A program made the translations under genes and the position numbers. From positions 434,001 through 498,000 of the forward strand of contig BROI01000004.1 of assembly GCA_027923505.1 (NCBI GenBank): a DNA stretch of 64,000 nt. Reading direction: 5' to 3'. Below the pieces are notes generated by a model, which was not told the DNA's origin, ran no database searches, and worked only from the letters and a program-made list of their open reading frames with translations. The DNA is from Mayamaea pseudoterrestris. Its lineage: Eukaryota. Below, in pieces: positions 6,932 through 26,952 of this stretch. Each line of letters begins with the position of its first letter. Within the stretch, counting starts at the first letter, position 1.

Positions 6932-7658
6932 AGTTGCTTGGGGAAGCAATGCAAACAAGAAGTATCACTCCAATCTTGCATAGTTTGGGTGTATACATGG
7001 ATTGATATAGGGATATATGAATGTCAAGGCACTGGGTGTATACAAGTCATGTTATATAGGCAATGGAATGTCAATTCATCTGTGGGCTGAGACTGGTGAA
7101 GTTCTCACCAGTCACATTGCAGTCTACTAGGGCACCCACCATTAATGCCATCTTGTAGCGCAGACTGAATAAGAATGTTGGCGCCAATCTGGTGTGATTT
7201 GGGTGTATACAAGGCATGGTTTATGGGCATTTAAATGTCAAGGCATCTGTGGGCTTAGACTGGTGAGAAGTTCTCCCCAGTCACATTGCCATCTACTAGG
7301 GCACCCACCAGGTATACCATCTTGTAGCGCAGACTGAATAATGATGTTGGCACCATCTGGTGTGATTTGGGTATAAATGGCATGTTTTATGGTCAATTGA
7401 AAGTCAAGGCATCTGCGGGCTTAGACTGGTGAGAAGTCCTTACCAGTCACATTGCAGTCTACAAGGTCACCCACCAGGTATACCATCTTGTAGCGCAGCC
7501 TGAATAATGATGTTGGCACCATTCTGGTGTAATTTGGGCACCAACAGGGCTTGCTGTAGGGGCGTTTGAATGTCAAGGCATCTGCGGGATGAGACTGGTG
7601 ACAAGTTGTCACTAAGTACATTGCCATCTCCTGAGACACCAGCCAAGCATTACCATCT
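6528..7658 (-). repeat. Diverged subfamily of the 169-bp satellite, inverted relative to the main array (about 5 monomers, interrupted ~6707-6980)
   Basis: Reverse-complement matches to the main unit (cttgtagcgcag.ctgaataatgatgttggcacc); the last monomer (~7480-7658) is close to the main consensus. Confidence 0.85.
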
Positions 7659-9576
7659 CACTGAAAGCCAAAGAAGTTTCTACAGATGGTAACACAGCGG
7701 CGAACGTAAAATCGAAAGCAAACGGGCGCACGCATACCTGGGGCGTAAGGTTGCCGCGCAATTATAAAGATGCGAAAAGCTCTCTCGAGAAACAACACGT
7801 GTGGACGGATGCGAAACGGAAAAATCAGATAAATGATTACCACACGCTCGAGAAAGGAGTGCCGCGCCGCGGGAAACGAATAAACGCGCACATGATATTC
7901 GATGTCAAGCACGATTTGCGATGAAAGCACGACTCGTTGCAGGACATCAAGGCGACAGAGCGGGATTCAGTTTACTCGGGCGGTGTCATTGCTGGGCTCA
8001 CGAATGGTAGCGATGTTAGCGGAACTCAACGGTCTGGAACTGTGGGCAGCTGGACGCCACAACGCATACTTGGAAGCGAAAACAAAAGAGAAGGTTTATA
8101 TCGCGGCAGGTCCGAGTTCGGGAGCTCGAGGGGCAGCACGCACGATCGTGAAGGCATTATACGGTCTCGCATCGCAGCTTATCGCTGGCACGAGCACTTT
8201 GCAGACACGTCCGCTGACATTGGCTTCACGCGTGTAAGAACCGGACGTGGATGCGCTGATAAAGGCACACTACTAATACGCTTGTGTGTATGTCGAAACA
8301 TAGCGATGAAGAAAAGGAAAACTAACGGATCTTTTAATTGAGAACAATCTTAAGCCAGCGGGGGCGCCGCCCATTGGCATACATTTGGGCGCAGACGCTT
8401 AGACGACGACCGCATTTTGCTTCGAGCGAAGGAAGTACGCCACAAGACTACTTAGCGAACTACAAAGAAATGTTCGCACCGCGATCGCAGACAAGTCCAC
8501 TACGCGACGGATTGCTGTGTTGCAATGGGTAAGTTTATGTCGATTCGACATTCACTGTGCTGTCATGACTATGGGGAGATTCCGAGCTGGCGCCCGAGCG
8601 GCAATTTGGAACGGTTGAAGCATATTTGGGGATTACTTACGAAGATACCCGGATGGAGCGATTCGATTCATCACGTTTCGATTCCAACGGACGAGCGATA
8701 CGCGACAGTTGACAAGCATGGATTGGGATTACAGTGTGTACGGCAAGATCTGCGAAGAGCCTGTGGAACATGCCCACGCCGCGCGGCAAGGCGGTGGCGA
8801 ATGTCAACGTCCGAAGATGCGAACCTGTACCACGATTACACGACGGACGGGCAGCGATGGGCATGGCGTACACATGTTGAATGGAACAGTCGTTGATTGG
8901 TTTTCGAAACGCCAAGCGACGGTCGAGACGGCGACGTACGGCTCGGAGTTTGTAGCAGCGAGAGTGAGCACGGAGCAGATCATGGATCTTCGCTTCACGC
9001 TACGCATGTTGGGAGTTCCGCTCGACGGACCTTCATGGATGTTTGGAGACAACAAGTCGGTAACGCAAAGCAGCAACCTACCGCACTCTAGTCTGACGAA
9101 GCGACACAATGCACTGGCATTTCACCGTGTACGCGAAGCGATTGCGGCGGGAATTATTAATTTCAACCACATCATGGGAACGACAAACCCGGCGGATGTA
9201 CTTACCAAGTTTCTTCCACGGGCTACGGCAAGCAAGCACTTAAAGAACCTGCTCTTCAAGGAATCTAACTATTAGGTATGACTTGAGGGGAGTTGCAGGA
9301 TGCGAACGAAAACAGCGAAAATCGGGCAAGTCACACCGAATGTCCGATAGGGTGACACAGCGGCACTCGCGGCTCACCACAGCCTCACGATCGCGTGATG
9401 CGTGGCAGCGACGGCTTCGAAGCGATTCAACAAGTATATTGCTGAAACTAGTGCGATATAGAGTAGAAACAAGCAGACTTACTAAGCTTGAAGAGTTAAG
9501 AAAGCGATTTATTCGTCTCTCGTATTGTAGCAACTGCAAGCTTGGATTGGCCATCCAAGGACAGCTACAAGCGAAA
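7659..9576 (+). mobile_element. Truncated copy of the same Ty1/copia element (RT-RNase H part plus 3' LTR lacking its last 29 bp)
   Basis: Aligns with ~20745-22797 of the intact copy; indel-riddled to ~8870, near-identical afterwards; LTR at 9293-9576. Confidence 0.9.
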
Positions 9577-12500
9577 TCACCGACACTCAAACGCATCTAC
9601 AGCAAGCCCTGTAGGTGCCCAAATTACACCAGAATGGTGCCAACCTCATTATTAAGGCTGCGCTACAAGGTGGTAGGCTTGGTTGGTGTCTCAGGGGATG
9701 GCACAACTTGTCACCAGTCTCAACCAGCAGATGCCGTGACATCTAAACGCCCCAACAGCAAGCCCTGTAGGTGCCCAAATTGCACCAGAATGGTGCCAAC
9801 ATCATTATTCAGGCTGCGCTACAAGACAAGATGGTAGGCTTGGCTGGTGTCTCAGGGGATGGCAATGATATTGGTGACAACTTGTCACCAGTCTCAGCGC
9901 AAAGATGCCGTGACATTCAAACGCCCCTACAGCAAGCCCTGTAGGTGCCCAGATTACACCAGAATGGTGACAACATCATTATTCAGGCTGCGCTACGAGA
10001 TGGTTGGCTTGGTTGGTGTCTCAGGGGATGGCAATGTATTTGGTGACAACTTGTCACCAGTCTCAGCCCGCAGATGCCATGACATTCAAACGCTTCTACA
10101 GCAAGCCCTGTAGGTGCCCAAATTGCACCAGAATGGTGCCAACATCATTATTCAGGCTGCGCTACAAGATGTTAGGCTTGGTTGGTGTCTCCGGGGATGG
10201 CAATGATATTGGTGACAACTTGTCATCAGTCTCAGCCCGCAGATGCCATGACATTCAAATGCTTCTACAGCAAGCCCTGTAGGTGCCCAGATTACACCAG
10301 AATGGTGCCAACAACATTATTCAGGCTGCGCTACAAGATGGCAGGCTTGGTTGGTGTCTCAGGGGATGGCAATGTATTTGGTGACAACTTGTCACCAGTC
10401 TCAGCCCGCAGATGCCATGACATTCAAACGCTTCTACAGCAAGCCCTGTAGGTGCCCAAATTGCACCAGAATGGTGCCAACATCATTATTCAGGCTGCGC
10501 TACAAGATGTTAGGCTTGGTTGGTGTCTCCGGGGATGACAATGATATTGGTGACATCTTGTCATCAGTCTCAGCCCGCAGATGCCATGACATTCAAACGC
10601 TTCTACAGCAAGCCCTGTAGGTGCCCAAATTACACCAGAATGGTGCCAACATCATTATTCAGGCTGCGCTACAAGATGGTAGGCTTGGTTGGTGTCTCAG
10701 GCTATGGCAATGATATTGGTGACAACTTGTCACCAGTCTCAGCTGGCAGATGCTGTGACATTTAAACGCCCCTACAGCAAGCCCAGTCGGTGCCCAGATT
10801 ACACCAGAATGGTGCCAACATCATTATTCAGGCTGCGCTACAAGATGGTAGGCTTGGCTGGTGTCTCAGGGGATGGAAATGTATTTGGTGACAACTTGTC
10901 ACCAGTCTCAGCCCGCAGATGCCGTGACATTCAAACGCCCCTACAGCAAGCCCTGTAGGTGCCCTAATTACACCAGAATGGTGCCAACATCATTATTCAG
11001 GCTGCGCTACAAGATGGTAGGCTTGGCTGGTGTCTCAGGCTATGGCAATGAAATTGGTGACAACTTGTCACCAGTCTCAGCCCCGCAGATGCCGTGACAC
11101 TCAAACGCACCTACAGCAAGCCCTGTAGGTGCCCAAATCACACCAGAATGGTGGCAACCTCATTATTCAGGCTGCGCTACAAGATGGTAGGCTTGGCTGG
11201 TGTCTCAGGGGATGGCATTGTATTTGGTGACAACTTGTCACCAGTCTCAGCCCGCAGATGCCATGACATTCAAATGCCCCTACAGCAAGCCCTGTAGGTG
11301 CCCAAATTACACCAGAATGGTGCCAACATCATTATTCAGGCTGCGCTACAAGATGGTTGGCTTGGCTGGTGTCTCAGGGGATGGCAATGATATTGGTGAC
11401 AACTTGTCACCAGTCTCAGCCGGCAGATGCCGTGACATTCAAACGCCCCTACAGCAAGCCCTGTAGGTGCCCAAAATACACCAGAATGGTGCCAACATCA
11501 TTATTCAGGCTGCGCTACAAGATGGTAGGCTTGGCTGGTGTCTCAGGGATGGCAATGTATTTGGTGACAACTTGTCACCAGTCTCAGCCCGCAGATGCCG
11601 TGACATTCAAACCCCCTTACAGCAAGCCCTGTAGGTGCCCAAATTACACCAGAATAATGCCAACATCATTATTTAGGCGGCGCCACAAGATGGTAGGCTT
11701 GGCTGGTGTCTCAGGGGATGGCAATGTATTTGGTGACAACTTGTCACCAGTCTCAGCCCGCAGATGCCGTGACATTCAAACGCTCCTACAGCAAGCCCTG
11801 TAGGTGCCCAAAATACACCAGAATGGTGCCAACATCATTATTCAGGCTGCGCTACAAGATGGTAGGCTTGGCTGGTGTCTCAGGGGATGGCAATGTATTT
11901 GGTGACAACTTGTCACCAGTCTCAGCCGGCAGATGCTGTGACATTCAAACGCCCCTACAGCAAGCCCTGTAGATGCCCAAATTACACCAGAATGGTGCCA
12001 ACATCATTACTCAGGCTGCGCTACAAGTTAGTAGGCTTGACTGGTGTCTCAGGGGTTGGCAATGTATTTGGTGACAACTTGTCACCAGTCTCAGCCCGCA
12101 GATGCCGTGACATTCAAACACCTTTACAGCAAGCCCTGTAGATGCCCAAAATAACACCAGAATGGTGCCAACATCATTATTCAGGCTGCGCTACAAGTTG
12201 GTAGGCTTGACTGGTGTCTCAGGGGATGGCAATGTATTTGGTGACAACTTGTCACCAGTCTCAGCCGCAGATGCCGTGACATTCAAACGCCCCTACAGCA
12301 AGCCCTGTAGGTGCCTAAAAACACCAGAATGGTGCCAACATCATTATTCAGGCTGCGCTACAAGATGGTAGGCTTGGCTGGTGTCTCAGGGGATGGCAAT
12401 GTATTTGGTGACAACTTGTCACCAGTCTCAGCCTGCAGATGCCATGACATTCAAACGCCCCTACAGCAAGCCCTGCAGGTGCTTAAATCACACAAGAATG

Positions 12501-15500
12501 GTGTTATCATCATTATTCCGGCTGCGCTACAAGATGGTAGGCTTGGCTGGTGTCTCCGGGGATGGCAATGTATTTGGTGACAACTTGTCACCAGTCTCAG
12601 CCAGCAGATGCCATGACATTCAAACGCCCCTACAGCAAGCCCTGTAGGTGCCCAAATTACACCAGAATGGTGCCAACATCATTATTCAGGCTGCGCTACA
12701 AGATGGTAGGCTTGGCTGGTGTCTCAGGGGATGGAAATGTATTTGGTGACAACTTGTCACCAGTCTCAGCCCGCAGATGCCGTGACATTCAAACGCCCCT
12801 ACAGCAAGCCCTGTAGGTGCCCAAAATACACCAGAATGGTGCCAACATCATTATTTAAGCTGCGCTACAAGATGGTAGGCTTGGCCGGTGTCTCAGGGGA
12901 TGGCAATGTGTTTGGTGACAACTTGTCACCAGTCTCAGCCTGCAGATGCCGGGACATTCAAACACCCCTACAGCAAGCCCTGTAGGTGCCCAAAATACAC
13001 CAGAATGGTGCCAACATCATTATTCAGGCTGCGCTACAAAATGGTAGGCTTGGCTGGTGTCTCAGGGGATGGCAATGTATTTGGTGACAACTTGTCGCAG
13101 ATGCCGTGACATTCAAACGCCCCTACAGCAAGCCCTGTAGGTGCCTAAAATACACCAGAATGGTGCCAACATCATTATTCAGGCTGCGCTACAAGATGGT
13201 AGGCTTGGCTGGTGTCTCAGGGGATGGAAATGTGTTTGGTGACAACTTGTCACCAGTCTCAGCCCGCAGATGCCGTGACATTCAAACGCTCCTACAGCAA
13301 GCCCTGTAGGTGCCCAAAATACACCAGAATGGTGCCAACATCATTATTCAGGCTGCGCTACAAGATGGTAGGCTTGGCTGGTGTCTCAGGGGATGGCAAT
13401 GTATTTGGTGACAACTTGTCACCAGTCTCAGCCCGCAGATGCCGTGACATTCAAACGCCCCTACAGCAAGCCCTGTATGTGCCCAAATTACACCAGAATG
13501 GTGGCAACATCATTATTCAGGCTGCGCTACAAGATGGTAGGCTTGGCCGGTGTCTCAGGGGATGGCAATGTATTTGGTGACAACTTGTCACCAGTCTCAG
13601 CCCGCAGATGCCGTGACATTCAAACGCCCCTACAGCAAGCCCTGTAGGTGCCTAAAATACACCAGAATGGTGCCAACATCATTATTCAGGCTGCGCTACA
13701 AAATGGTGGGCTTGGCTGGTGTCTCAGGGGATGGCAATGTATTTGGTGACAACTTGTCACCAGTCTCAGCCGGCAGATGCCGGGACATTCAAACGCCCCT
13801 ACAGCAAGCCCTGTAGGTGCCTAAAATACACCAGAATGGTGCCAACATCATTATTCAAGCTGCGCTACAAGATGGTAGGCTTGGCTGGTGTCTCAGGGGA
13901 TGGCAATGTATTTGGTGACAACTTGTCACCAGTCTCAGCCCGCAGATGCCGTGACATTCAAACGCCCCTACAGCAAGCCCTGTAGGTGCCCAAAATACAC
14001 CAGAATGGTGCCAACATCATTATTCAGGCTGCGCTACAAGATGGTAGGCTTGGCTGGTGTCTCAGGGGATGGCAATGTATTTGGTGACAACTTGTCACCA
14101 GTCTCAGCCCGCAGATGCCGAGACATTCAAACGCTCCTATAGCAAGCCCTGTAGGTGCCCAAAATACACCAGAATTATGCCAACATCAATATTCAGGCTG
14201 CGCTACAAGAAGGTTGGCTTGGCTGGTGTCTCAGGGGATGGCAATGTATTTGGTGACAACTTGTCGCAGATGCCGTGACATTCAAACGCCCCTACAGCAA
14301 GCCCTGTAGGTGCCCAAAATACACCAGAATGGTGCCAACATCATTATTCAGGCTGCGCTACAAGATCGTAGGCTTGGCTGGTGTCTCAGGGGATGGCAAT
14401 GTATTTGGTGACAACTTGTCACCAGTCTCAGCCTGCAGATGCTGTGACATTCAAACGCCCCTACAGCAAGCCCTGTAGGTGCTAAACCAGAATGGTACCA
14501 ACATCATTAATCAGGCTGCGCTAAAAGATGGCAGGCTTGGCTGGTGTCTCAGGGGATGGCAATGTATTTGGTGACAACTTGTCACCAGTCTCAGCTGGCA
14601 GATGCCGTGACATTCAAACGCCCCTACAGCAAGCCCTGTAGGTGCCTAAAATACACCAGAATGGTGCCAACATTCATTATTCAGGCTGCACTACAAGATG
14701 GTAGGCTTGGCTGGTGTCTCAGGGGATGGCAATGTATTTGGTGACAACTTGTCACCAGTCTCAGCCGGCAGATGCCGGGACATTCAAACGCCCCTACAGC
14801 AAGCCCTGTAGGTGCCCAAAATACACCAGAATGGTGCCAACATCATTATTCAGGCTGCTCTACAAGATGGTAGGCTTGGCTGGTGTCTCAGGGGATGGCA
14901 ATGTATTTGGTGACAACTTGTCACCAGTCTCAGCCTGCAGATGCCGTGACATTCAAATGCCCCTACAGCAAGCCCTGTAGGTGCCTAAAATACACCAGAA
15001 TGGTGCCAACATCATTATTCAGGCTCTGCTACAAGATGGGAGGCTTGGCTGGTGTCTCAGGGGATGGCAATGTATTTGGTGACAACTTGTCACCAGTCTC
15101 AGCCGGCAGATGCCGGGACATTCAAACGCCCCTACAGCAAGCCCTGTAGGTGCCCAAAATACACCAGAATGGTGCCAACATCATTATTCAGGCTGCGCTA
15201 CAAGATGGTAGGCTTGGCTGGTGTCTCATGGGATGGGAATGATTTTGGTGACAACTTGTCACCAGTCTCAGCCTGCAGATGCCGGGACATTCAAACACCC
15301 CTACAGCAAGCCCTGTAGGTGCCCAAAATACACCAGAATGGTGCCAACATCATTTATTAAGCTGCGCTACAAGATGGAAGGCTCAGCCGGTGTCTCGGGG
15401 GATGGCAATGTATTTGGTGACAACTTGTCACCAATCTCAGCCTGCAGATGCCGTGACATTCAAACACCCCTACAGCAAGCCCTGTAGGTGCCCAAAGTAC

Positions 15501-16243
15501 ACCAGAATGGTGCCAACATCATTATTCAGGCTGCGCTACAAGATGGTAGGCTTGGCTGGTGTCTCAGGGGATGGCAATGTATTTGGTGACAACTTGTCAC
15601 CAGTCTCAGCCCGCAGATGCCGTGACATTCAAACGCCCCTACAGCAAGCCCTGTAGGTGCCCAAAATACACCAGAATGGTGCCAACATCATTATTCAGGC
15701 TGCGCTACAAGATGGTAGGCTTGGCTGGTGTCTCAGGGGATGGCAATGTATTTGGTGACAACTTGTCACCAGTCTCAGCCCGCAGATGCCGGGACATTCA
15801 AACGCCCCTACAGCAAGCCCTGTAGGTGCCCAAAATACACCAGAATGGTGCCAACATCATTATTCAGGCTGCTCTACAAGATGGTAGGCTTGGCTGGTGT
15901 CTCAGGGGATGGCAATGTATTTGGTGACAACTTGTCACCAGTCTCAGCCTGCAGATGCCGTCATATTCAAATGCCCCTACAGCAAGCCCTGTAGGTGCCT
16001 AAAATACACCAGAATGGTGCCAACATCATTATTCAGGCTGCGCTACAAGATGGGAGGCTTGGCTGGTGTCTCAGGGGATGGCAATGTATTTGGTGACAAC
16101 TTGTCACCAGTCTCAGCCGGCAGATGCCGGGACATTCAAACGCCCCTACAGCAAGCCCTGTAGGTGCCCAAAATACACCAGAATGGTGCCAACATCCTTA
16201 TTCAAGCTGCGCTACAAGATTGTAGGCTTGGCTGGTGTCTCAT
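9577..16243 (+). repeat. 169-bp tandem satellite, left block (~39 monomers)
   Basis: Unit ...ttggtgacaacttgtcaccagtctcagcccgcagatgccgtgacattcaaacgcccctacagcaagccctgtaggtgcc... recurs with 169-bp period. Confidence 0.98.
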
Positions 16244-16556
16244 TTGCAGGATGCGAACGAAAACAGCGAAAATCGGGCAAGTCACACCGAATGTCCGATA
16301 GGGTGACACAGCGGCACTCGCGGCTTACCACAGCCTCACGATCGCGTGATGCGTGGCAGCGACGGCTTCGAAGCGATTCAACGAGTATATTGCTGAAACT
16401 AGTGCGATATAGAGTAGAAACAAGCAGACTTACTAAGCTTGAAGAGTTAAGAAAGCGATTTATTCGTCTCTCGTATTGTAGCAACTGCAAGCTTGGATTG
16501 GCCATCCAAGGACAGCTACAAGCGAAAGGTGCAACGATTTGATTTACAAGTTACAA
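16244..16556 (+). repeat. 5' LTR (313 bp)
   Basis: Direct repeat of 22514-22826; only one mismatch seen (cggcttacca vs cggctcacca). Confidence 0.96.
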
Positions 16557-16570
16557 GATTAACAGTCTTG
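16557..16570 (+). promoter_or_regulatory. Candidate primer-binding site complementary to a tRNA-Asn(GTT) anticodon arm
   Basis: Reverse complement of 16554-16570 is CAAGA-CTGTTAA-TCTTG; no TGG-type PBS follows the LTR. Confidence 0.55.
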
Positions 16571-16703
16571 AGACTCATTGCCTCGGCATAGAGACTTTAT
16601 CGACGAAGAGTACTATTGATTTACGAAGTAACGTGGACGCACGTTGGTTCTTGGCCCGGAAAGTTCCGCAGGTGATAGCAAGAACATTGTCACGACGACA
16701 ACG

Positions 16704-19700
16704 ATGGCGGAAACTCGCGCGCAGAAAGACGCGGCGTTTGCGCATGTTTACGAAGAGAACGTAGGCGTTTTCCAAGATCCTCAGTTCAAGGAGTTATTCG
16801 ACGAACTCGGAGTAGAATCGCTTACGCAATTGATCGAGATGGAGTACGACGATTTCGCGACGAAGTGGAACGTCACGACGACGACAACGACGACGACTGA
16901 CGATGGCGACAATGTCACGCAGGAAACGAGCGAACACTCGCTAACGAAGATGAAACAACGCACGATCACGAACGCGATCGAATGGTATTTGGCGCAAGAG
17001 TCGCCGGACATCAAGACATGGTCGCAACTGACCACCGAAACGCTGGCGACGTTCGTCACAGCACGAGCGAAGGAACGAGTCCAAGCGCGCAACATTGCGA
17101 GCGTGGGCAGCGGAAGCGGAGCGAAACCTCCAGCGAAGGAAAGCGAAACGGAATCCAAGAAGGACGAATCCAAGGACTCCACGCTAACGAACGAAGGCGA
17201 CGAGTCGAAGCCCGACTCGGCCGACAAGGTGCCACCGACGAGCGTGGACGTGGACACGAAGCAGTCACCAACATCCGTACTGGACCTCGGTGACGACGAA
17301 GACGACGAGAAGTATTCAGACCAATTTACGAAGTCTATCAAGTTCTCGGCGAAGGATTGTAAAGAAATGAAGCTGGATTCCTCGTGGAAACAGTGGATTT
17401 CTGAGTTGAAAGTCATCGCTACATTGCACGACTTCCACGAAGTCTTTGACGACGATTATGACCCGAAGGAAAAGGGACCGAAGGAACAAAAGGCGTATGC
17501 AAAGAAGAATGTGTTTGTGTACAGGATCTTTCTCACGCACTGTCGAACTCCGTCTGCATCACTCGCAGTACAGCAGTTCAAGAAGACGATGGACGGACGC
17601 GAAGTCTACCAACGATTGCGAACGCGATACGAAGAAGGCGCTACTGCTCACATCGAGAAGGAACGCGCGCGAACGGAACTGCAGGGAATGCGGCTGACCG
17701 AGAAGTGGTCAAGGCCGACGATCGAATTTCTCGCACTGTTCTACAAGAAAGTCATCTGGCTGCTCGAAATGGACGCAGAAGCTCTGACAGGTTTACAACG
17801 ATACGACATGCTACGCGACGCTTTCTCTGAGCACACTGGATTCAGCGCCTCGCTAGCAGGTTTTGACGGAATGATTGCCATCAAGAAACACATGGGGCAA
17901 CACGACTCGGAAGACAATTTCGCGCAGTTGTACGCGCACTTAGAAGAGTGCTGCATCAAGTATGACAAGAAACATCCATCGACGACGAAGACTAAGCGCA
18001 CAATCAATCAAGCGCAGTCTAGTGGAACGAAAGGAGGCGGCGGCGGCAATGGCGGCGCGACTCCAAGCGGCTTATCGGCGGAACGATTTGCAGCGATCAT
18101 GAAGAAACCTCACGCGAGCGTGAAGGATGAAGTCTGGTTGGAGATGAAGTTCGATCAGCGAAAGCAGTTGAAGGACAAGCGTGCGACGGCGCCCAAGACA
18201 CCCGAAAACGGATGGCGACCGCGCAACCAACGAGGCACGGCTACGACGCAGACGCAAGTCAACGCGGCGCATCAAGAGCGTCACGCGACGGAATCTGTAG
18301 CGAACGATCACGCAAGCGTTCCTGGCACGATTAATATTCAGCCAGGCAATAGTGGAATGTCAGTCCAAACGGCTGCACGATCGGTTCTGCAAGCAAATAA
18401 TGCGAGTACTACAACTCAGCAAGTGACAGGATCGTTGACGACTGATAACACCGGACGAGGTACATTCAGCTTCAACATGCATCGTCGTATGCGCGTCAAT
18501 CGCGCACACTACGAGCGGATCAACGAAGGCGCGCTCATCGACAGCGGCGCGAACGGAGGCTTATGCGGAGGAGACATGCTCGTCGTTTCGGAAACGAACG
18601 CCGAGGTGGATGTGACTGGTATTGACGATCATATTGTCCCAGCTCTCAAGATTGGCACTGCAGCTGGACTGGCTAAGACCCTTAGTGGCGAAACCATTCT
18701 GCTTTTGTGTCACCAGTATGCTTTAAAGCGAGACGGACCGACGATTCATTGCCCGAATCAATTGCGCGCAATGGGACATCGTGTCGACGATATTCCGACC
18801 ATGTTTGGCGGAACGCAACGAATTACGACGAACATTGGAGGCTACGTTTTGCCATTGGCAATTCGCGATGGCCTGGTGTACTTGGACGTGACGAAACCCA
18901 CGTTCGATGATTTGGATAAGTATCCGACTGTCATCATGACGTCGGACGTGCCGTGGGACCCGACTGTTTACGATGTCGAGCACGCGCACGACGATTTCGA
19001 CGAACGCGATCACGATTATGGATCTTTCGACGAACGATTCGACGATGACGGTATCACGCACCGCAATCGTCACACGCCGACACGCACTGGCGACGAACTT
19101 GACGTACTGATCAATCGGTGCGTGCGACACGCTCAGTTTTCACGCGTTAATTTGCGGAAGCTAAGAAGCAAGGAACCGGACTATAATGCTCTTCGGCCGT
19201 ACCTCGGATGGGTCCCGACTGAGCGCGTTCAACAGACTTTACGTCACACGGAAGCATGGTATCATCTCAGCGAACACCCGCGATTACCATTTCGACACCT
19301 CACGAAATCACGATTTCCGGCCGCGAACGTTCAGCGGTTGCGCGAACTATTCGCCACGGACACGATACACTCTGACACGCCAGCTTTGGATGATGGAATT
19401 CTAGGGCATGGGGGAGCTACTAAGATGCAGCTCTTTGTTGGACGAGAAAGTTTTTACACGCGCGGCTACCCGATGAAGTCGGAGAGCGAAATGTCAAACG
19501 CGTTAGAGGATTTTATCCGCGAAGTGGGCGCTCCTAACGGACTGCTCAGCGACAATGCCAAGTCGGAGACTGGCAAGGCTGTGAGGGATCTCTGTCGGAT
19601 GTACAATATTCCTCAAGTGACCACAGAACCGGGTCATCCAGAACAAAATCCATGCGAACGTCACACGTCGCACATTAAGCCAATGATGGAGAACCTCCAA

Positions 19701-22496
19701 CGAGATTCGGGTTCGCCAGGTCATTGCTGGGTTTTGCTGATTAAATTCGTAATCATGATACTGAACGTCCTCGCGACGAAATCGCTGGGATGGCGCACTC
19801 CAACGGAAGTTGCGTTCGGAAATTTGCCGGATATTTCGCCTTTGTTACATTTCAAGTGGTGGGAACCGGTCACGTTTGAGGCGCAGGGGAGTTTTCCCTC
19901 GGCGGTACGATCTGGCAACGGCCGATTTGTGGGCATCGCAGAGAATAGCGGTCCGCACATGACTTTTCTCGTTCTGACGGACGATACGCTTCAGGCGATT
20001 CCGCGCTCCAACGTGGTCTCGCGCAGCTACTTGTTACCACGAGAGTTGCCTTCCTTCCCTGAGTCTGGAGGGGAGATTTCTGAAGAAGCTACACGCGCAA
20101 GCGAGCGAAATTTTGAAACTCCAGATCTCGCGACAGGACGCTACCATAGCACGAATGCGACAGAAAGTAGTCACGACAACTACGAAGGAAACGACGACGA
20201 AACGATTCCGATGGCGAACCACGCCAACGTACCAGCGAAGTTCTTCAGAAGGGCTGAGCAAGAATCAGGGAATAAATGCCCTCTGTTCTCTCCAAGCGAA
20301 CTCATCGGACGCACGTTCGTAAGGGAACACGAAAACGGTCAGAAAATGCGAGCGACTGTATGCGAATATATCGAAGTACGCGATAACGAGCTACTCGAAA
20401 CGACGAAAGGTTTCCTAATCCAAATGGGAGAGGAGCCAGCGAAAGACTTAATAAGTTACAACGAACTGTCGGATTTAATCGAACGACAGATGGACGAAGA
20501 TATACGAAACGATCCGGCGACTCAGTGGGTATTCACGAAGGTAATCGGACACGAGCTTAATTTGAAACCGAACGATCCGACATACAAAGGAAGTTCAAGT
20601 AACGTTCTCGTCGAATGGACTGACGGAACGACGACGTGGGAGCCTCTCGCGATCATGAAGAAGGACGATCCGATAACGATCGCAGAGTATGGACTCAAGC
20701 ACGGCTTACTCGACAAGCCAGGATGGAAGCAGCTGGAGCATTACACTCGGAAGCGAAAGAAGTTTCGACAGATGGTAACAGCGGCGAAACGAAAATCGAA
20801 AGCAAACGGCGTACGCTACAAATTCGGCGTAAGGTTGCCGCGCAATTATAAAGATGCGAAAGCTCTCGACGAGATCAACGGCAACACGCTGTGGACGGAT
20901 GCGATTCGAACGGAATTAAATCAGATAAATGATTACCACACGTTCGCAGATCAAGGAGTCGGTAAGGTTATGCCGGCGCCGTGGAAACGAATAAACGTGC
21001 ACATGATATTCGATGTCAAGCACGATTTGCGACGGAAAGCACGACTCGTTGCAGGAGGACATATGACAGAGCCGCCGAAGGATTCAGTTTACTCGGGCGT
21101 TGTGTCATTGCGAAGTCTACGAATGGTAGCGATGTTAGCGGAACTCAACGGTCTGGAACTGTGGGCAGCTGACGTCGGCAACGCATACTTGGAAGCGAAA
21201 ACGAAAGAGAAGGTTTATATCGTGGCAGGTCCGGAGTTCGGGGAGCTCGAGGGTCACACGCTCACGATCGTGAAGGCATTATACGGTCTTCGCACGTCAG
21301 GCGCACGCTGGCACGAGCACTTTGCAGACACGCTCCGCGACATTGGCTTCACGCCGTGTATCGCAGAACCGGACGTGTGGATGCGCGATAAAGGCACGCA
21401 CTACGAATACGTTTGTGTGTATGTCGACGATTTAGCGATAGCGATGAAGAATCCGAAGGAACTAACGGATCTTTTAATTGAGAACTACAACTACAAGTTG
21501 AAGGGCGTCGGCCCATTGGCATATCATTTGGGCGCAGACGTTTGGCGAGACGACGACGGCGTACTCTGCTTCGGAGCGAAGAAGTACGTCACAAGACTAC
21601 TAGCGAACTACAAAGAAATGTTCGGCGAGGAACCGCGACCGCAGACAAGTCCACTACGCGACGGCGATCATCCGGAACTCGACGAAACGAAAGAACTTGA
21701 CGACGACGGAATTGCGAAGTATCAATCGATAATTGGTGCGTTGCAATGGGCAGTAAGTTTATGTCGATTCGACATTCACTGCGCTGTCATGACTATGGGG
21801 AGATTCCGAGCTGCGCCACGAGCGGGGCACTTGGAACGGTTGAAGCATATTTGCGGATACTTACGACGATACCCGGATGGAGCGATTCGATTCAACGTTT
21901 CGATTCCAACGGACGAGCGATACGCGACAGTTGACAAGATGGATTGGGATTACAGTGTGTACGGCAAGATCTGCGAAGAGCTTCCGTGGAACATGCCCAC
22001 GCCGCGCGGCAAGGCGGTGCGAATGTCAACGTTCGAAGATGCGAACCTGTACCACGATTACACGACGGGACGGGCAGCGATGGGCATGCTACACATGTTG
22101 AATGGAACAGTCGTTGATTGGTTTTCGAAACGCCAAGCGACGGTCGAGACGGCGACGTACGGCTCGGAGTTTGTAGCAGCGAGAGTGAGCACGGAGCAGA
22201 TCATGGATCTTCGCTTCACGCTACGCATGTTGGGAGTTCCGCTCGACGGACCTTCATGGATGTTTGGAGACAACAAGTCGGTAACGCAAAGCAGCAACCT
22301 ACCGCACTCTAGTCTGACGAAGCGACACAATGCACTGGCATTTCACCGTGTACGCGAAGCGATTGCGGCGGGAATTATTAATTTCAACCACATCATGGGA
22401 ACGACAAACCCGGCGGATGTACTTACCAAGTTTCTTCCACGGGCTACGGCAAGCAAGCACTTAAAGAACCTGCTCTTCAAGGAATCTAACTATTAG
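16704..22496 (+). CDS. Gag-Pol polyprotein (1930 aa from first ATG): gag, aspartic protease, integrase, chromodomain-like segment, RT, RNase H
   Basis: ALIDSGAN (PR); ATDTIH / LSDNAKSE / EQNPCE (DDE integrase); KARLVAGG, ADVGNAYL, KALYGL, YVDDL (RT); EDAN, GSEF, GDNKSV, NPADVLTK (RH); uninterrupted ORF. Confidence 0.96.
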   Translation: MAETRAQKDAAFAHVYEENVGVFQDPQFKELFDELGVESLTQLIEMEYDDFATKWNVTTTTTTTTDDGDNVTQETSEHSLTKMKQRTITNAIEWYLAQESPDIKTWSQLTTETLATFVTARAKERVQARNIASVGSGSGAKPPAKESETESKKDESKDSTLTNEGDESKPDSADKVPPTSVDVDTKQSPTSVLDLGDDEDDEKYSDQFTKSIKFSAKDCKEMKLDSSWKQWISELKVIATLHDFHEVFDDDYDPKEKGPKEQKAYAKKNVFVYRIFLTHCRTPSASLAVQQFKKTMDGREVYQRLRTRYEEGATAHIEKERARTELQGMRLTEKWSRPTIEFLALFYKKVIWLLEMDAEALTGLQRYDMLRDAFSEHTGFSASLAGFDGMIAIKKHMGQHDSEDNFAQLYAHLEECCIKYDKKHPSTTKTKRTINQAQSSGTKGGGGGNGGATPSGLSAERFAAIMKKPHASVKDEVWLEMKFDQRKQLKDKRATAPKTPENGWRPRNQRGTATTQTQVNAAHQERHATESVANDHASVPGTINIQPGNSGMSVQTAARSVLQANNASTTTQQVTGSLTTDNTGRGTFSFNMHRRMRVNRAHYERINEGALIDSGANGGLCGGDMLVVSETNAEVDVTGIDDHIVPALKIGTAAGLAKTLSGETILLLCHQYALKRDGPTIHCPNQLRAMGHRVDDIPTMFGGTQRITTNIGGYVLPLAIRDGLVYLDVTKPTFDDLDKYPTVIMTSDVPWDPTVYDVEHAHDDFDERDHDYGSFDERFDDDGITHRNRHTPTRTGDELDVLINRCVRHAQFSRVNLRKLRSKEPDYNALRPYLGWVPTERVQQTLRHTEAWYHLSEHPRLPFRHLTKSRFPAANVQRLRELFATDTIHSDTPALDDGILGHGGATKMQLFVGRESFYTRGYPMKSESEMSNALEDFIREVGAPNGLLSDNAKSETGKAVRDLCRMYNIPQVTTEPGHPEQNPCERHTSHIKPMMENLQRDSGSPGHCWVLLIKFVIMILNVLATKSLGWRTPTEVAFGNLPDISPLLHFKWWEPVTFEAQGSFPSAVRSGNGRFVGIAENSGPHMTFLVLTDDTLQAIPRSNVVSRSYLLPRELPSFPESGGEISEEATRASERNFETPDLATGRYHSTNATESSHDNYEGNDDETIPMANHANVPAKFFRRAEQESGNKCPLFSPSELIGRTFVREHENGQKMRATVCEYIEVRDNELLETTKGFLIQMGEEPAKDLISYNELSDLIERQMDEDIRNDPATQWVFTKVIGHELNLKPNDPTYKGSSSNVLVEWTDGTTTWEPLAIMKKDDPITIAEYGLKHGLLDKPGWKQLEHYTRKRKKFRQMVTAAKRKSKANGVRYKFGVRLPRNYKDAKALDEINGNTLWTDAIRTELNQINDYHTFADQGVGKVMPAPWKRINVHMIFDVKHDLRRKARLVAGGHMTEPPKDSVYSGVVSLRSLRMVAMLAELNGLELWAADVGNAYLEAKTKEKVYIVAGPEFGELEGHTLTIVKALYGLRTSGARWHEHFADTLRDIGFTPCIAEPDVWMRDKGTHYEYVCVYVDDLAIAMKNPKELTDLLIENYNYKLKGVGPLAYHLGADVWRDDDGVLCFGAKKYVTRLLANYKEMFGEEPRPQTSPLRDGDHPELDETKELDDDGIAKYQSIIGALQWAVSLCRFDIHCAVMTMGRFRAAPRAGHLERLKHICGYLRRYPDGAIRFNVSIPTDERYATVDKMDWDYSVYGKICEELPWNMPTPRGKAVRMSTFEDANLYHDYTTGRAAMGMLHMLNGTVVDWFSKRQATVETATYGSEFVAARVSTEQIMDLRFTLRMLGVPLDGPSWMFGDNKSVTQSSNLPHSSLTKRHNALAFHRVREAIAAGIINFNHIMGTTNPADVLTKFLPRATASKHLKNLLFKESNY

Positions 22497-22505
22497 GTAT
22501 GACTT

Positions 22506-22513
22506 GAGGGGAG
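22506..22513 (+). promoter_or_regulatory. Polypurine tract
   Basis: GAGGGGAG directly before the 3' LTR; the same tract precedes the LTR at 9293. Confidence 0.85.
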
Positions 22514-22826
22514 TTGCAGGATGCGAACGAAAACAGCGAAAATCGGGCAAGTCACACCGAATGTCCGATAGGGTGACACAGCGGCACTCGCGGCTCACCA
22601 CAGCCTCACGATCGCGTGATGCGTGGCAGCGACGGCTTCGAAGCGATTCAACGAGTATATTGCTGAAACTAGTGCGATATAGAGTAGAAACAAGCAGACT
22701 TACTAAGCTTGAAGAGTTAAGAAAGCGATTTATTCGTCTCTCGTATTGTAGCAACTGCAAGCTTGGATTGGCCATCCAAGGACAGCTACAAGCGAAAGGT
22801 GCAACGATTTGATTTACAAGTTACAA
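22514..22826 (+). repeat. 3' LTR (313 bp)
   Basis: Direct repeat of 16244-16556. Confidence 0.96.
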
Positions 22827-25800
22827 TCATGGGATGGGAATGATTTTGGTGACAACTTGTCACCAGTCTCAGCCCGCAGATGCTGGGACATTCAAACGCC
22901 CCTACAGCAAGCCCTGTAGGTGCCCAAAATACACCAGAATGGTGCCAACATCATTTATTAAGCTGCGCTACAAGATGGAAGGCTCAGCCGGTGTCTCGGG
23001 GGATGGCAATGTATTTGGTGACAACTTGTCACCAATCTCAGCCTGCAGATGCCGTGACATTCAAACGCCCCTACAGCAAGCCCTGTAGGTGCCCAAAGTA
23101 CACCAGAATGGTGCCAACATCATTATTCAGGCTGCGCTACAAGATGGTAGGCTTGGCTGGTGTCTCAGGGGATGGCAATGTATTTGGTGACAACTTGTCA
23201 CCAGTCTCAGCCCGCAGATGCCGTGACATTCAAACGCCCCCTACAGCAAGCCCTGTAGGTGCCCAAAATACACCAGAATGGTGCCAACATCATTTATTAA
23301 GCTGCGCTACAAGATGGAAGGCTCAGCCGGTGTCTCGGGGGATGGCAATGTATTTGGTGACAACTTGTCACCAATCTCAGCCCGCAGATGCCATGACATT
23401 CAAACACCCCTACAGCAAGCCCTGTAGGTGCCCAAAATACACCAGAATTGTGCCAACATCATAATTCAGGCTGCGCTACAAGATCGTAGGCTCGGCTGGT
23501 GTCTCAGGGGATGGCAATGTATTTGGTGACAACTTGTCACCAGTCTCAGCCCGCAGATGCCGGGACATTCAAACGCCCCTACAGCAAGCCCTGTAGGTGC
23601 CCAAAATACACCAGAATGGTGCCAACATCATTTAATAAGCTGCGCTACAAGATGGAAGGCTCAGCCGGTGTCTCGGGGGATGGCAATGTATTTGGTGACA
23701 ACTTGTCACCAATCTCAGCCTGCAGATGCCGTGACATTCAAACACCCCAACAGCAAGCCCTGTAGGTGCCCAAAGTACACCAGAATGGTGCCAACATCAT
23801 TATTCAGGCTGCGCTACAAGATGGTAGGCTTGGCTGGTGTCTCAGGGGATGGCAATGTATTTGGTGACAACTTGTCACCAGTCTCAGCCCGCAGATGCCG
23901 TGACATTCAAACGCCCCTACAGCAAGCCCTGTAGGTGCCCAAAATACACCAGAATGGTGCCAACATCATTATTCAGGCTGCGCTACAAGATGGTAGGCTT
24001 GGCTGGTGTCTCAGGGGATGGCAATGTATTTGGTGACAACTTGTCACCAGTCTCAGCCCGCAGATGCCGTGACATTCAAACGCCCCTACAGCAAGCCCTG
24101 TAGGTGCCCAAAATACACCAGAATGGTGCCAACATCATAATTCAGGCTGCGCTACAAGATGGTAGGCTTGGCTGGTGTCTCAGGGGATGGCAATGTATTT
24201 GGTGACAACTTGTCACCAGTCTCAGCCTGCAGATGCCATGACATTCAAACGCCCCTACAGCAAGCCCTGTAGGTGCCCAAAATACACCAGAATGGTGCCA
24301 ACATCATTATTCAGGCTGCGCTACAAGATGGTAGGCTTGGCTGGTGTCTCAGGGGATGGCAATGTATTTGGTGACAACTTGTCACCAGTCTCAGCCTGCA
24401 GATGCCGTGACAGTCAAACATGCCTACAGCAAGCCCTGTAGGTGCCCAAAATACACCAAAATGGTGCCAACATAATTATTCAGGCTGCACTACAAGATGG
24501 TATGCTTGGCTGGTGTCTCAGGGGATGGCAATGCATTTGGTGACAACTTGTCACCAGTCTCAGCCCGCAGATGCCGTGACATTTAAACGCCCCTACAGCA
24601 AGCCCTGTAGGTGCCCAAAATACACCAGAATGGTGCCAACATCATTATTCAGGCTGCGCTACAAGATGGTAGGCTTGGCTGGTGTCTCAGGGGATGGCAA
24701 TGTATTTGGTGACAACTTGTCACCAGTCTCAGCTCGCAGATGCCGTGACATTCAAACGCCCCTACAGCAAGCCCTGTAGGTGCCCAAAATACACCAGAAT
24801 GGTGCCAGCATCATTATTCAGGCTGCGCTACAAGATGGCAGGCTTGGCTGGTGTCTCAGGGGATGGCAATGTATTTGGTGACAACTTGTCACCAGTCTCA
24901 GCCCGCAGATGCCGTGACATTCAAACGCCCCTACAGCAAGCCCTGTAGGTGCCCAAAATACACCAGAATGGTGCCAACATCATTATTCAGGCTGCGCTAA
25001 AAGATGGTAGGCTTGGCTGGTGTCTCAGGGGATGGCAATGTATTTGGTGACAACTTGTCACCAGTCTCAGCCTGCAGATGCCGTGACATTCAAACGCCCC
25101 TACAGCAAGCCCTGTAGGTGCCCAAAATACACCAGAATGGTGCCAACATCATTATTCAGGCTGCGCTACAAGATGGTAGGCTTGGCTGGTGTCTCAGGGG
25201 ATGGCAATGTATTTGGTGACAACTTGTCACCAGTCTCAGCCCGCAGATGCCGGGACATTCAAACGCCCCTACAGCAAGCCCTGTAGGTGCCCAAAATACA
25301 CCAGAATGGTGCCAACATCATTATTCAGGCTGCGCTACAAGATGGTAGGCTTGGATGGTGTCTCAGGGGATGGCAATGTATTTGGTGACAACTTGTCACC
25401 AGTCTCAGCCCGCAGATGCCGTGACATTCAAACGCCCCTACAGCAAGCCCTGTAGGTGCTAAACCAGAATGGTACCAACATCATTAATCAGGCTGCGCTA
25501 AAAGATGGCAGGCTTGGCTGGTGTCTCAGGGGATGGCAATGTATTTGGTGACAACTTGTCACCAGTCTCAGCTGGCAGATGCCGTGACATTCAAACGCCC
25601 CTACAGCAAGCCCTGTAGGTGCCTAAAATACACCAGAATGGTGCCAACATCATTATTCAGGCTGCGCTACAAGATGGTAGGCTTGGCTGGTGTCTCAGGG
25701 GATGGCAATGTATTTGGTGACAACTTGTCACCAGTCTCAGCCCGCAGATGCCGGGACATTCAAACGCCCCTACAGCAAGCCCTGTAGGTGCCCAAAATAC

Positions 25801-26952
25801 ACCAATATGGTGCCAACATCATTATTCAGGCTGCGCTACAAGATGGCAGGCTTGGCTGGTGTCTCAGGGGATGGCAATGTATTTGGTGACAACTTGTCAC
25901 CAGTCTCAGCCCGCAGATGCCGTGACATTCAAATGCCCCTACAGCAAGCCCTGTAGGTGCCCAAAATACACCAGAATGGTGCCAACATCATTATTGGGTC
26001 TGCGCTACAAGATGGCAGGCTTGGCTGGTGTCTCAGGGGATGGCAATGTATTTGGTGACAAGTTGTCACCAGTCTCAGCCCGCAGATGCCGTGACATTCA
26101 AACGCCCCTACAGCAAGCCCTGTAGGTGCCCAAAATACACCAGAATGGTGCCAACATAATTATTCAAGTTGCGCTACAAGATGGTAGGCTTGGCTGGTGT
26201 CTCAGGGGATGGCAATGTATTTGGTGACAACTTGTCACCAGTCTCAGCCCGCAGATGCCGTGACATTCAAACGCCCCTACAGCAAGCCCTGTAGGTGCCC
26301 AAAATACACCAGAATGGTGCCAACATCATTATTCAGGCTGCTCTACAAGATGGTAGGCTTGGCTGGTGTCTCAGGGGATGGCAATGTATTTGGTGACAAC
26401 TTGTCACCAGTCTCAGCCCGCAGATGCCGTGACATTCAAACGCCCCTACAGCAAGCCATGTAGGTGCCCAAAATACACCAGAATGGTGCCAACATCATTA
26501 TTCAGGCTGCGCTACAAGATGGTAGGCTTGGCTGGTTTCTCAGGGGATGGCAATGTATTTGGTGACAACTTGTCACCAGTCTCAGCCCGCAGATGCCAGG
26601 ACATTCAAACGTCCCTACAGCAAGCCCTGTAGGTGCCCAAAGTACACCAGAATGGTGCCAACATCATTATTCAAGCTGCGCTACAAGATGGAAGGCTCAG
26701 CCGGTGTCTTGGGGGATGGCAAGGTATTTGGTGACAACTTGTCACCAGTCTCAGCCGGCAGATGCCATGACATTCAAACGCCCCTACAGCAAGCCCTGTA
26801 GGTGCCCAAAATACACCAGAATTGTGCCAACATCATTATTCAGGCTGCGCTACAAGATGGTATGCTTAGCTGGTGTATCAGGGGATGGCAATGTATTTGG
26901 TGACAAGTTGTCACCAGTCTCAGCCCGCACATGCCGTGACATTCAAACGCCC
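22827..26952 (+). repeat. 169-bp tandem satellite, right block (~24 monomers)
   Basis: Same unit, resuming in register after the TSD. Confidence 0.98.

Follow-up and report, generated by a model that had tools for sequence, protein, structure and literature searches.

A chromo-type domain lies C-terminal to the integrase in the available descriptions of Ty3/gypsy chromoviruses, the oomycete Chronos elements and Ectocarpus ECR-1, and is assumed to give these elements a targeting preference (PMC6317226; PMC5348765; 10.1101/2024.05.11.593484). Within Ty1/copia, Llorens et al. (2009; PMC2774666) described integrases with a putative C-terminal chromodomain in the diatom CoDi clade A; the legend of their supplement calls the module similar to the chromodomain consensus, and its gain was probably independent of chromoviruses according to the same paper. 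The clade is named CoDi-I by Ustyantsev et al. (2017; PMC5348765) and lineage CoDiI by Maumus et al. (2009; PMC2806351), and in the literature available its chromodomain has stayed "putative" since 2009, being restated as such in PMC5348765 and in bioRxiv 10.1101/2024.05.11.593484. Here we describe a 64,000-nucleotide stretch of the Mayamaea pseudoterrestris genome (contig BROI01000004.1, positions 434,001 to 498,000; hereafter the window), in which an intact long terminal repeat (LTR) retrotransposon of 6.6 kb (16244 to 22826) sits inside a 169-bp tandem array and carries such a module between integrase and reverse transcriptase (RT). We read the module as a chromo-fold domain behind the integrase of a diatom-type Ty1/copia lineage (CoDi-A/CoDi-I type) that serves as a loose targeting tether, and give this reading a probability of roughly 55%. 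Overall, the analysis is a confirmation of a known feature with a modest site bias; what it adds is fold support, the state of the aromatic cage, a second domain and a first insertion-site test.

The motif lies where the preliminary description placed it, between the integrase and RT of a Ty1/copia element. The first base of W1299 in the polyprotein P0001 is 20526, and the quoted stretch runs to 20657; the part of the integrase core matched by Pfam rve is upstream (19458 to 19640; E 4.4e-4, 20.9 bits, under the curated cut-off of 32.6) and the RT is downstream (Pfam RVT_2, 20973 to 21608; E 3.1e-25), all on the forward strand, as are the other features of the element. The predicted structure extends the folded domain to about 20511 to 20714 (aa ~1294 to 1361), slightly beyond the 20526 to 20690 first noted, and shows the three-stranded sheet and C-terminal helix of a chromo fold. 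Two predicted models each gave long unbroken runs of chromo-type structural matches spanning the whole domain. Foldseek made no chromodomain call, its best match being to cpSRP43 chromodomains at E 0.054. The structure prediction proposed at the outset thus supported a chromo-like module; the search against the Chromo profile PF00385, proposed with it, found no match in P0001. Pfam assigned no family to two cut-outs of the module, PDB searches by phmmer and by a 121-sequence profile matched no chromodomain, and hhalign made no chromodomain call for the module. The family profile reached a best E of 0.85 against seven host chromodomain loci, the seven genome-wide matches to PF00385 all lie at loci other than the element's module, and PF00385 matched below threshold in three of 86 homologues scanned (E 0.0036 to 0.05). 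The resemblance to a chromodomain escapes sequence comparison and is carried by the predicted structure.

The domain matches the integrase core in conservation. Median identity to 60 relatives chosen by RT similarity is 0.50 for the chromo fold and 0.46 for the integrase core, against 0.07 for the upstream linker, so the fold is under constraint. Its most conserved residues are the diagnostic LVxW...TWEP (W in 118, E in 115 and P in 113 of 121 sequences of a set selected by the module). Between strands 1 and 2 lies a family-specific loop of about 15 residues, which is also conserved; there the family of this element departs from the usual Gly-Pro. An unrelated fold of small beta-sheet and helix, a mere look-alike of a chromodomain, is barely credible given the unbroken matches of both models, the conservation of the LVxW...TWEP residues and the similarity to the consensus already reported for CoDi-A in the supplement of Llorens et al. 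(PMC2774666). The domain is very probably a chromo fold shared across the lineage.

Relative to characterized chromodomains the fold is divergent. Its identity to the chromo and chromoshadow domains of HP1/Chp1/Rhino and to the chromodomains of CHD1/CHD4 and cpSRP43 is 10 to 29%, its net charge is -3, and it differs from them in having no third cage aromatic. The cage positions, mapped by sequence pattern against one host chromodomain and not by superposition, are W1299, W1329 and G1332 in P0001, so that glycine replaces the third aromatic. The 60 RT-chosen relatives have an aromatic at the first position in 57 cases, at the second in 60 and at the third in none (glycine in 49), and the same picture holds in the module-selected set (93 of 119, 118 of 121, and glycine at the third in 106 of 121). 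As summarized in PMC6317226, type I chromodomains have three cage aromatics and type II lack the first and usually the third. Type I domains and ECR-1 keep all three in their published descriptions, whereas this module keeps the first two and has the additional loop of about 15 residues; it therefore has neither the complete cage of type I or HP1-like domains nor the loss of the first aromatic seen in type II. The missing third residue makes HP1-like methyl-lysine reading doubtful, and we set aside an HP1-type reader on this ground. This cage state may already stand in the supplementary alignments of CoDi-A.

Two further conserved parts flank the chromo fold. Upstream lies a small beta-sheet and helix domain (20277 to 20501, aa ~1216 to 1290) with a median identity of 0.41 among the 60 relatives; it had no usable match in the Atlas, and its fold matches were weak and conflicting, in models starting 14 residues too late. 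A Tudor or second chromo domain is a candidate identity for it. Downstream, a basic helical stretch (20715 to 20831; helices in the predicted models, median identity 0.38) is, judged by its residues, a candidate nuclear localisation or DNA-binding segment.

The preliminary description had suggested that the motif might be common among diatom copia lineages, and this is borne out both by Llorens et al. (PMC2774666, as far as that description goes) and by the relatives of the element. All 120 relatives listed, picked by RT similarity alone, carry the module, 119 of them within a 20-residue span of distance from the RT, so that its presence is not due to chance and a motif peculiar to this element is rejected; it is a lineage feature. 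At 50% identity, 1401 clusters match the module. This family has 92 exact LTR starts in the host genome, which also holds two further module-bearing families (module matched in 18 of 20 copies fetched for one and in all 20 for the other), and the 30 best-scoring RVT_2 loci of that genome, with three further upstream stretches, had no module. An RT tree of 24 rows places the module-bearing RTs on one side of a long branch with 100/100 support, apart from 14 module-free copia, and module and lineage are thus inseparable. Side observations on these copies include head-to-tail tandems in which two LTRs directly adjoin, copies of the element inserted into one another, and open frames of 2500 to 2800 aa in module-free copia families, far above usual copia polyproteins. 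Module duplication is possible in P0023 (461 aa), which matches the module in two stretches, and in one RT relative whose first module match lies about 600 aa from the RT.

The element also agrees with CoDi in its published outline. Copia gene order and a putative chromodomain at the integrase C-terminus are shared with CoDi-A/CoDi-I, and its length of 6.6 kb and LTR of 313 bp fall within the published ranges of 5182 to 8062 bp and 153 to 844 bp. LTR ends other than TG/CA are described for three CoDi families, and intact-looking copies without a target-site duplication (TSD) for P. tricornutum. A diatom host is indicated by a public protein record labelled diatom (P0002), 99.6% identical to P0001 over 1602 aa, and by one neighbour cluster in the Atlas that lists Bacillariophyta (known for two members). 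The likeness to CoDi-A follows the published description and not a residue-level alignment, and no named CoDi reference element occurred among the 120 RT matches listed or in five clusters. The published domain is "putative" and derived from sequence, whereas fold, cage, upstream beta-domain and insertion sites are added here. The module belongs to the known traits of a single copia lineage, here in a new host. Chromoviruses differ in their order of RT, RNase H and integrase with a terminal chromodomain, whereas the domain described here is placed internally, with integrase before it and RT after it.

The effect of the domain on insertion can be tested in this genome because it offers three young module-bearing families, several module-free copia families as controls and tandem arrays over 12 to 20% of its length. 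These arrays, of near-nucleosome monomer length (169, 172, 174 and 181 bp, with doubles), make up that share of the sampled genome. A literature search by titles and opening lines of abstracts, with most subscription journals outside its scope, returned no test of the fold or insertion effect of a CoDi chromodomain. For this family we sampled 30 matches at each end, out of 43 listed for the 5' end and 42 listed for the 3' end, and for comparison 20 copies each of the two other module-bearing families, 40 module-free copies, 20 random 10-kb tracts and 60 random 900-base points (the sizes of 11 contigs were guessed for the draw). In a first pass, satellite junctions numbered 10/30 and 11/30 for this family, 8/20 and 6/20 for the other module-bearing families, and 5/37 for module-free copies, three single-copy controls having no definable end. 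Fifteen rows were then dropped (the element's own two junctions, four element-element tandem joints and nine ends that were either truncated or duplicated). Five junction ends were also corrected before the final count, and this correction raised the module-free control.

In the final count, satellites held 9 of 27 5' and 10 of 27 3' junctions of this family, 7/17 and 6/17 for the two other module-bearing families, 8/34 for module-free copia and 7/60 random points. Pooled module-bearing 3' junctions (23/61) lie in satellites more often than random points do (p 0.0014), and since the random 10-kb tracts are 19 to 20% satellite the excess is two- to threefold. About two thirds of module-bearing junctions lie outside any satellite, and the arrays entered belong to several unrelated families (169, 172, 174, 181 and 371 bp). 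An element targeted to satellites or centromeres would have most copies in its target repeat; the 10 of 27 3' junctions of this family in any satellite are short of that. The steering into satellite proposed in the preliminary description is therefore supported in part, as an enrichment over random sites; the satellites entered are of several kinds, and the difference from module-free copies is not significant. The junctions are not fully independent: among 12 copies with both ends paired, six have no matching TSD, and one copy has a 5' flank that fits the 3' flank of a different copy lying 600 kb off on its contig. Such mismatched or exchanged flanks point to recombination or assembly misjoins, and recombination of copies is described for P. 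tricornutum in PMC2806351.

Several results weigh against a targeting role. The pooled 23/61 is not significantly different from the module-free 8/34 (p 0.18), and module-free copia themselves lean to satellites (8/34 against 7/60, p 0.15). A stop-free frame of at least 120 codons covers 31 of 60 random points (31 of 1060 shuffles), compared with 11/61 module-bearing and 10/34 module-free junctions. Once open-frame sites are removed, the satellite share is 23/50 for module-bearing, 8/24 for module-free and 7/29 for random sites, and the excess of module-bearing over random is no longer significant (p 0.06); the depletion of copies in open frames accounts for much of the satellite bias. Adding to this, the cage is incomplete and the two best structural matches are to chromoshadow domains, with chromodomains level to within 1 Z. 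All of this would fit a chromo fold without a role in site choice, serving the element itself (as a chromoshadow-like dimer or peptide surface in the intasome, or as an integrase-RT contact) while copies accumulate in satellites and other repeats because gene insertions are purged from a gene-dense genome. We regard this explanation as somewhat unlikely: the copies are young, with one mismatch in 313 between the LTRs of the element and 98 to 100% identity among other 5' LTRs of the family, which leaves little time for purging, and selection alone would not be expected to produce the distribution over the 169-bp family described below. Pfam families were assigned to only four of 26 open-frame flanks (gypsy-type in two, an aspartyl protease and a leucine-rich repeat in one each), so gene and transposon flanks are not cleanly separable.

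The 169-bp family received 12 of 61 module-bearing 3' junctions and one of 34 module-free ones (p 0.03, post hoc and uncorrected); alone among the contrasts, this one is left unexplained by selection. The family occupies ~4.6 to 5.4% of the host genome (7959 exact motif matches scaled by carriage rates), and at a share of 5.5% the binomial probability of 12/61 is 1e-4. These counts, together with the two element copies in the satellite island of the window, could be taken to mean that the 169-bp satellite is a specific target of the module, through a chromatin mark or centromeric histone, which would make these elements homing copia that resemble Tal1 and plant CRM by convergence. We consider this quite improbable. 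Forty-nine of the 61 junctions lie outside that satellite, the remaining satellite junctions fall in unrelated arrays of 172, 174, 181 and 371 bp, and the contrast was chosen after looking. This family alone has 5/27 3' and 3/27 5' junctions there (p 0.18 for the latter at 5.5%). Many contigs carry the satellite, at several sites each and in both orientations, which one centromere per chromosome would not give. Homing of the element to this satellite is rejected, most copies being elsewhere. A bolder version is a two-domain chromatin reader, evolved apart from chromoviruses, in which the beta-domain is joined to a chromo fold with two pocket aromatics and a conserved loop of its own, and which reads a feature of 169-bp satellite chromatin, with three copia families drawn to it at about four times its share and module-free copia not; we think this fairly unlikely.

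Under the loose-tether reading, the module (beta-domain, chromo fold and basic helix) would stay on the integrase C-terminus after polyprotein cleavage, by analogy with the Ty1/Ty5 targeting domain (PMC7459421), and would tether the integration complex to chromatin. The contact would be of a non-HP1 kind, made by a pocket of two aromatics or a peptide groove, or with nucleosomal DNA. Insertion would be tilted toward gene-poor, repeat-rich chromatin comprising several satellite families and other transposons. If the domain does steer with an incomplete cage, its chromatin ligand would be other than the HP1 mark, and integrase chromodomains would have arisen independently by a third route.

Tal1/ALE and Ty1/Ty5 are not known to carry a chromodomain. 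Chromatin or a host protein sets site choice in the Tal1/ALE Ty1/copia elements of Arabidopsis (PMC11735389) and in yeast Ty1/Ty5, where a small integrase targeting domain suffices (PMC7459421). Their targeting is described as sharp and was determined from de novo insertions, whereas here a two- to threefold bias is seen in surviving copies.

The remaining anatomy of the element is that of an intact copy. The 5' LTR (16244 to 16556) and 3' LTR (22514 to 22826) measure 313 bp each, and a TSD of 4 bp, TCAT, flanks them (16240 to 16243 and 22827 to 22830). A single gag-pol open reading frame (P0001, 16704 to 22496) encodes 1930 aa when read from its first ATG, or 1954 aa between stops, and a polypurine tract (22506 to 22513) lies immediately 5' of the 3' LTR. 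The domain order is protease motif, integrase, RT and RNase H, the protease (LIDSGA) and RNase H labels being presumed from characteristic patterns and not Pfam matches. As the integrase core precedes an RVT_2-type RT, the element is a Ty1/copia. Copia LTRs normally end in TG...CA with a TSD of 5 bp; among 12 LTR pairs this combination occurred in none and a 4-bp TSD in six. The LTRs of the element end in TTG...CAA (16244 to 16246 and 22824 to 22826), and other copia families here apparently end in CA, TA or CT. No Pfam family, and so no CCHC zinc knuckle, was matched in the Gag region (16704 to 18500); among CoDi elements the knuckle is known solely for CoDi6.2 to 6.5 in the description of PMC2806351. 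No tRNA gene was found in the window, and the primer-binding site of the element was not identified.

The satellite array extends to the left (9703 to 16242, 38.9 copies) and right (22827 to 26952, 24.4 copies) of the element. Its 169-bp monomer contains a 17-bp inverted repeat with 8-bp arms around one base (e.g. 16095 to 16111), possibly a protein-binding site. A reverse-oriented, diverged piece of the array, followed by a 5'-truncated second element copy, occupies 7033 to 9702. This copy (~7665 to 9576) runs from the RT to a 3' LTR that is cut short, and its first ~1.1 kb is rich in small indels resembling unpolished read error or decay. Ordinary gene-dense DNA begins right after the array (27141 to 64000), with genes for a metallophosphoesterase, AMP deaminase, Polo-like kinase, MCM, GST, START/EDR2, DDHD and SUV3.
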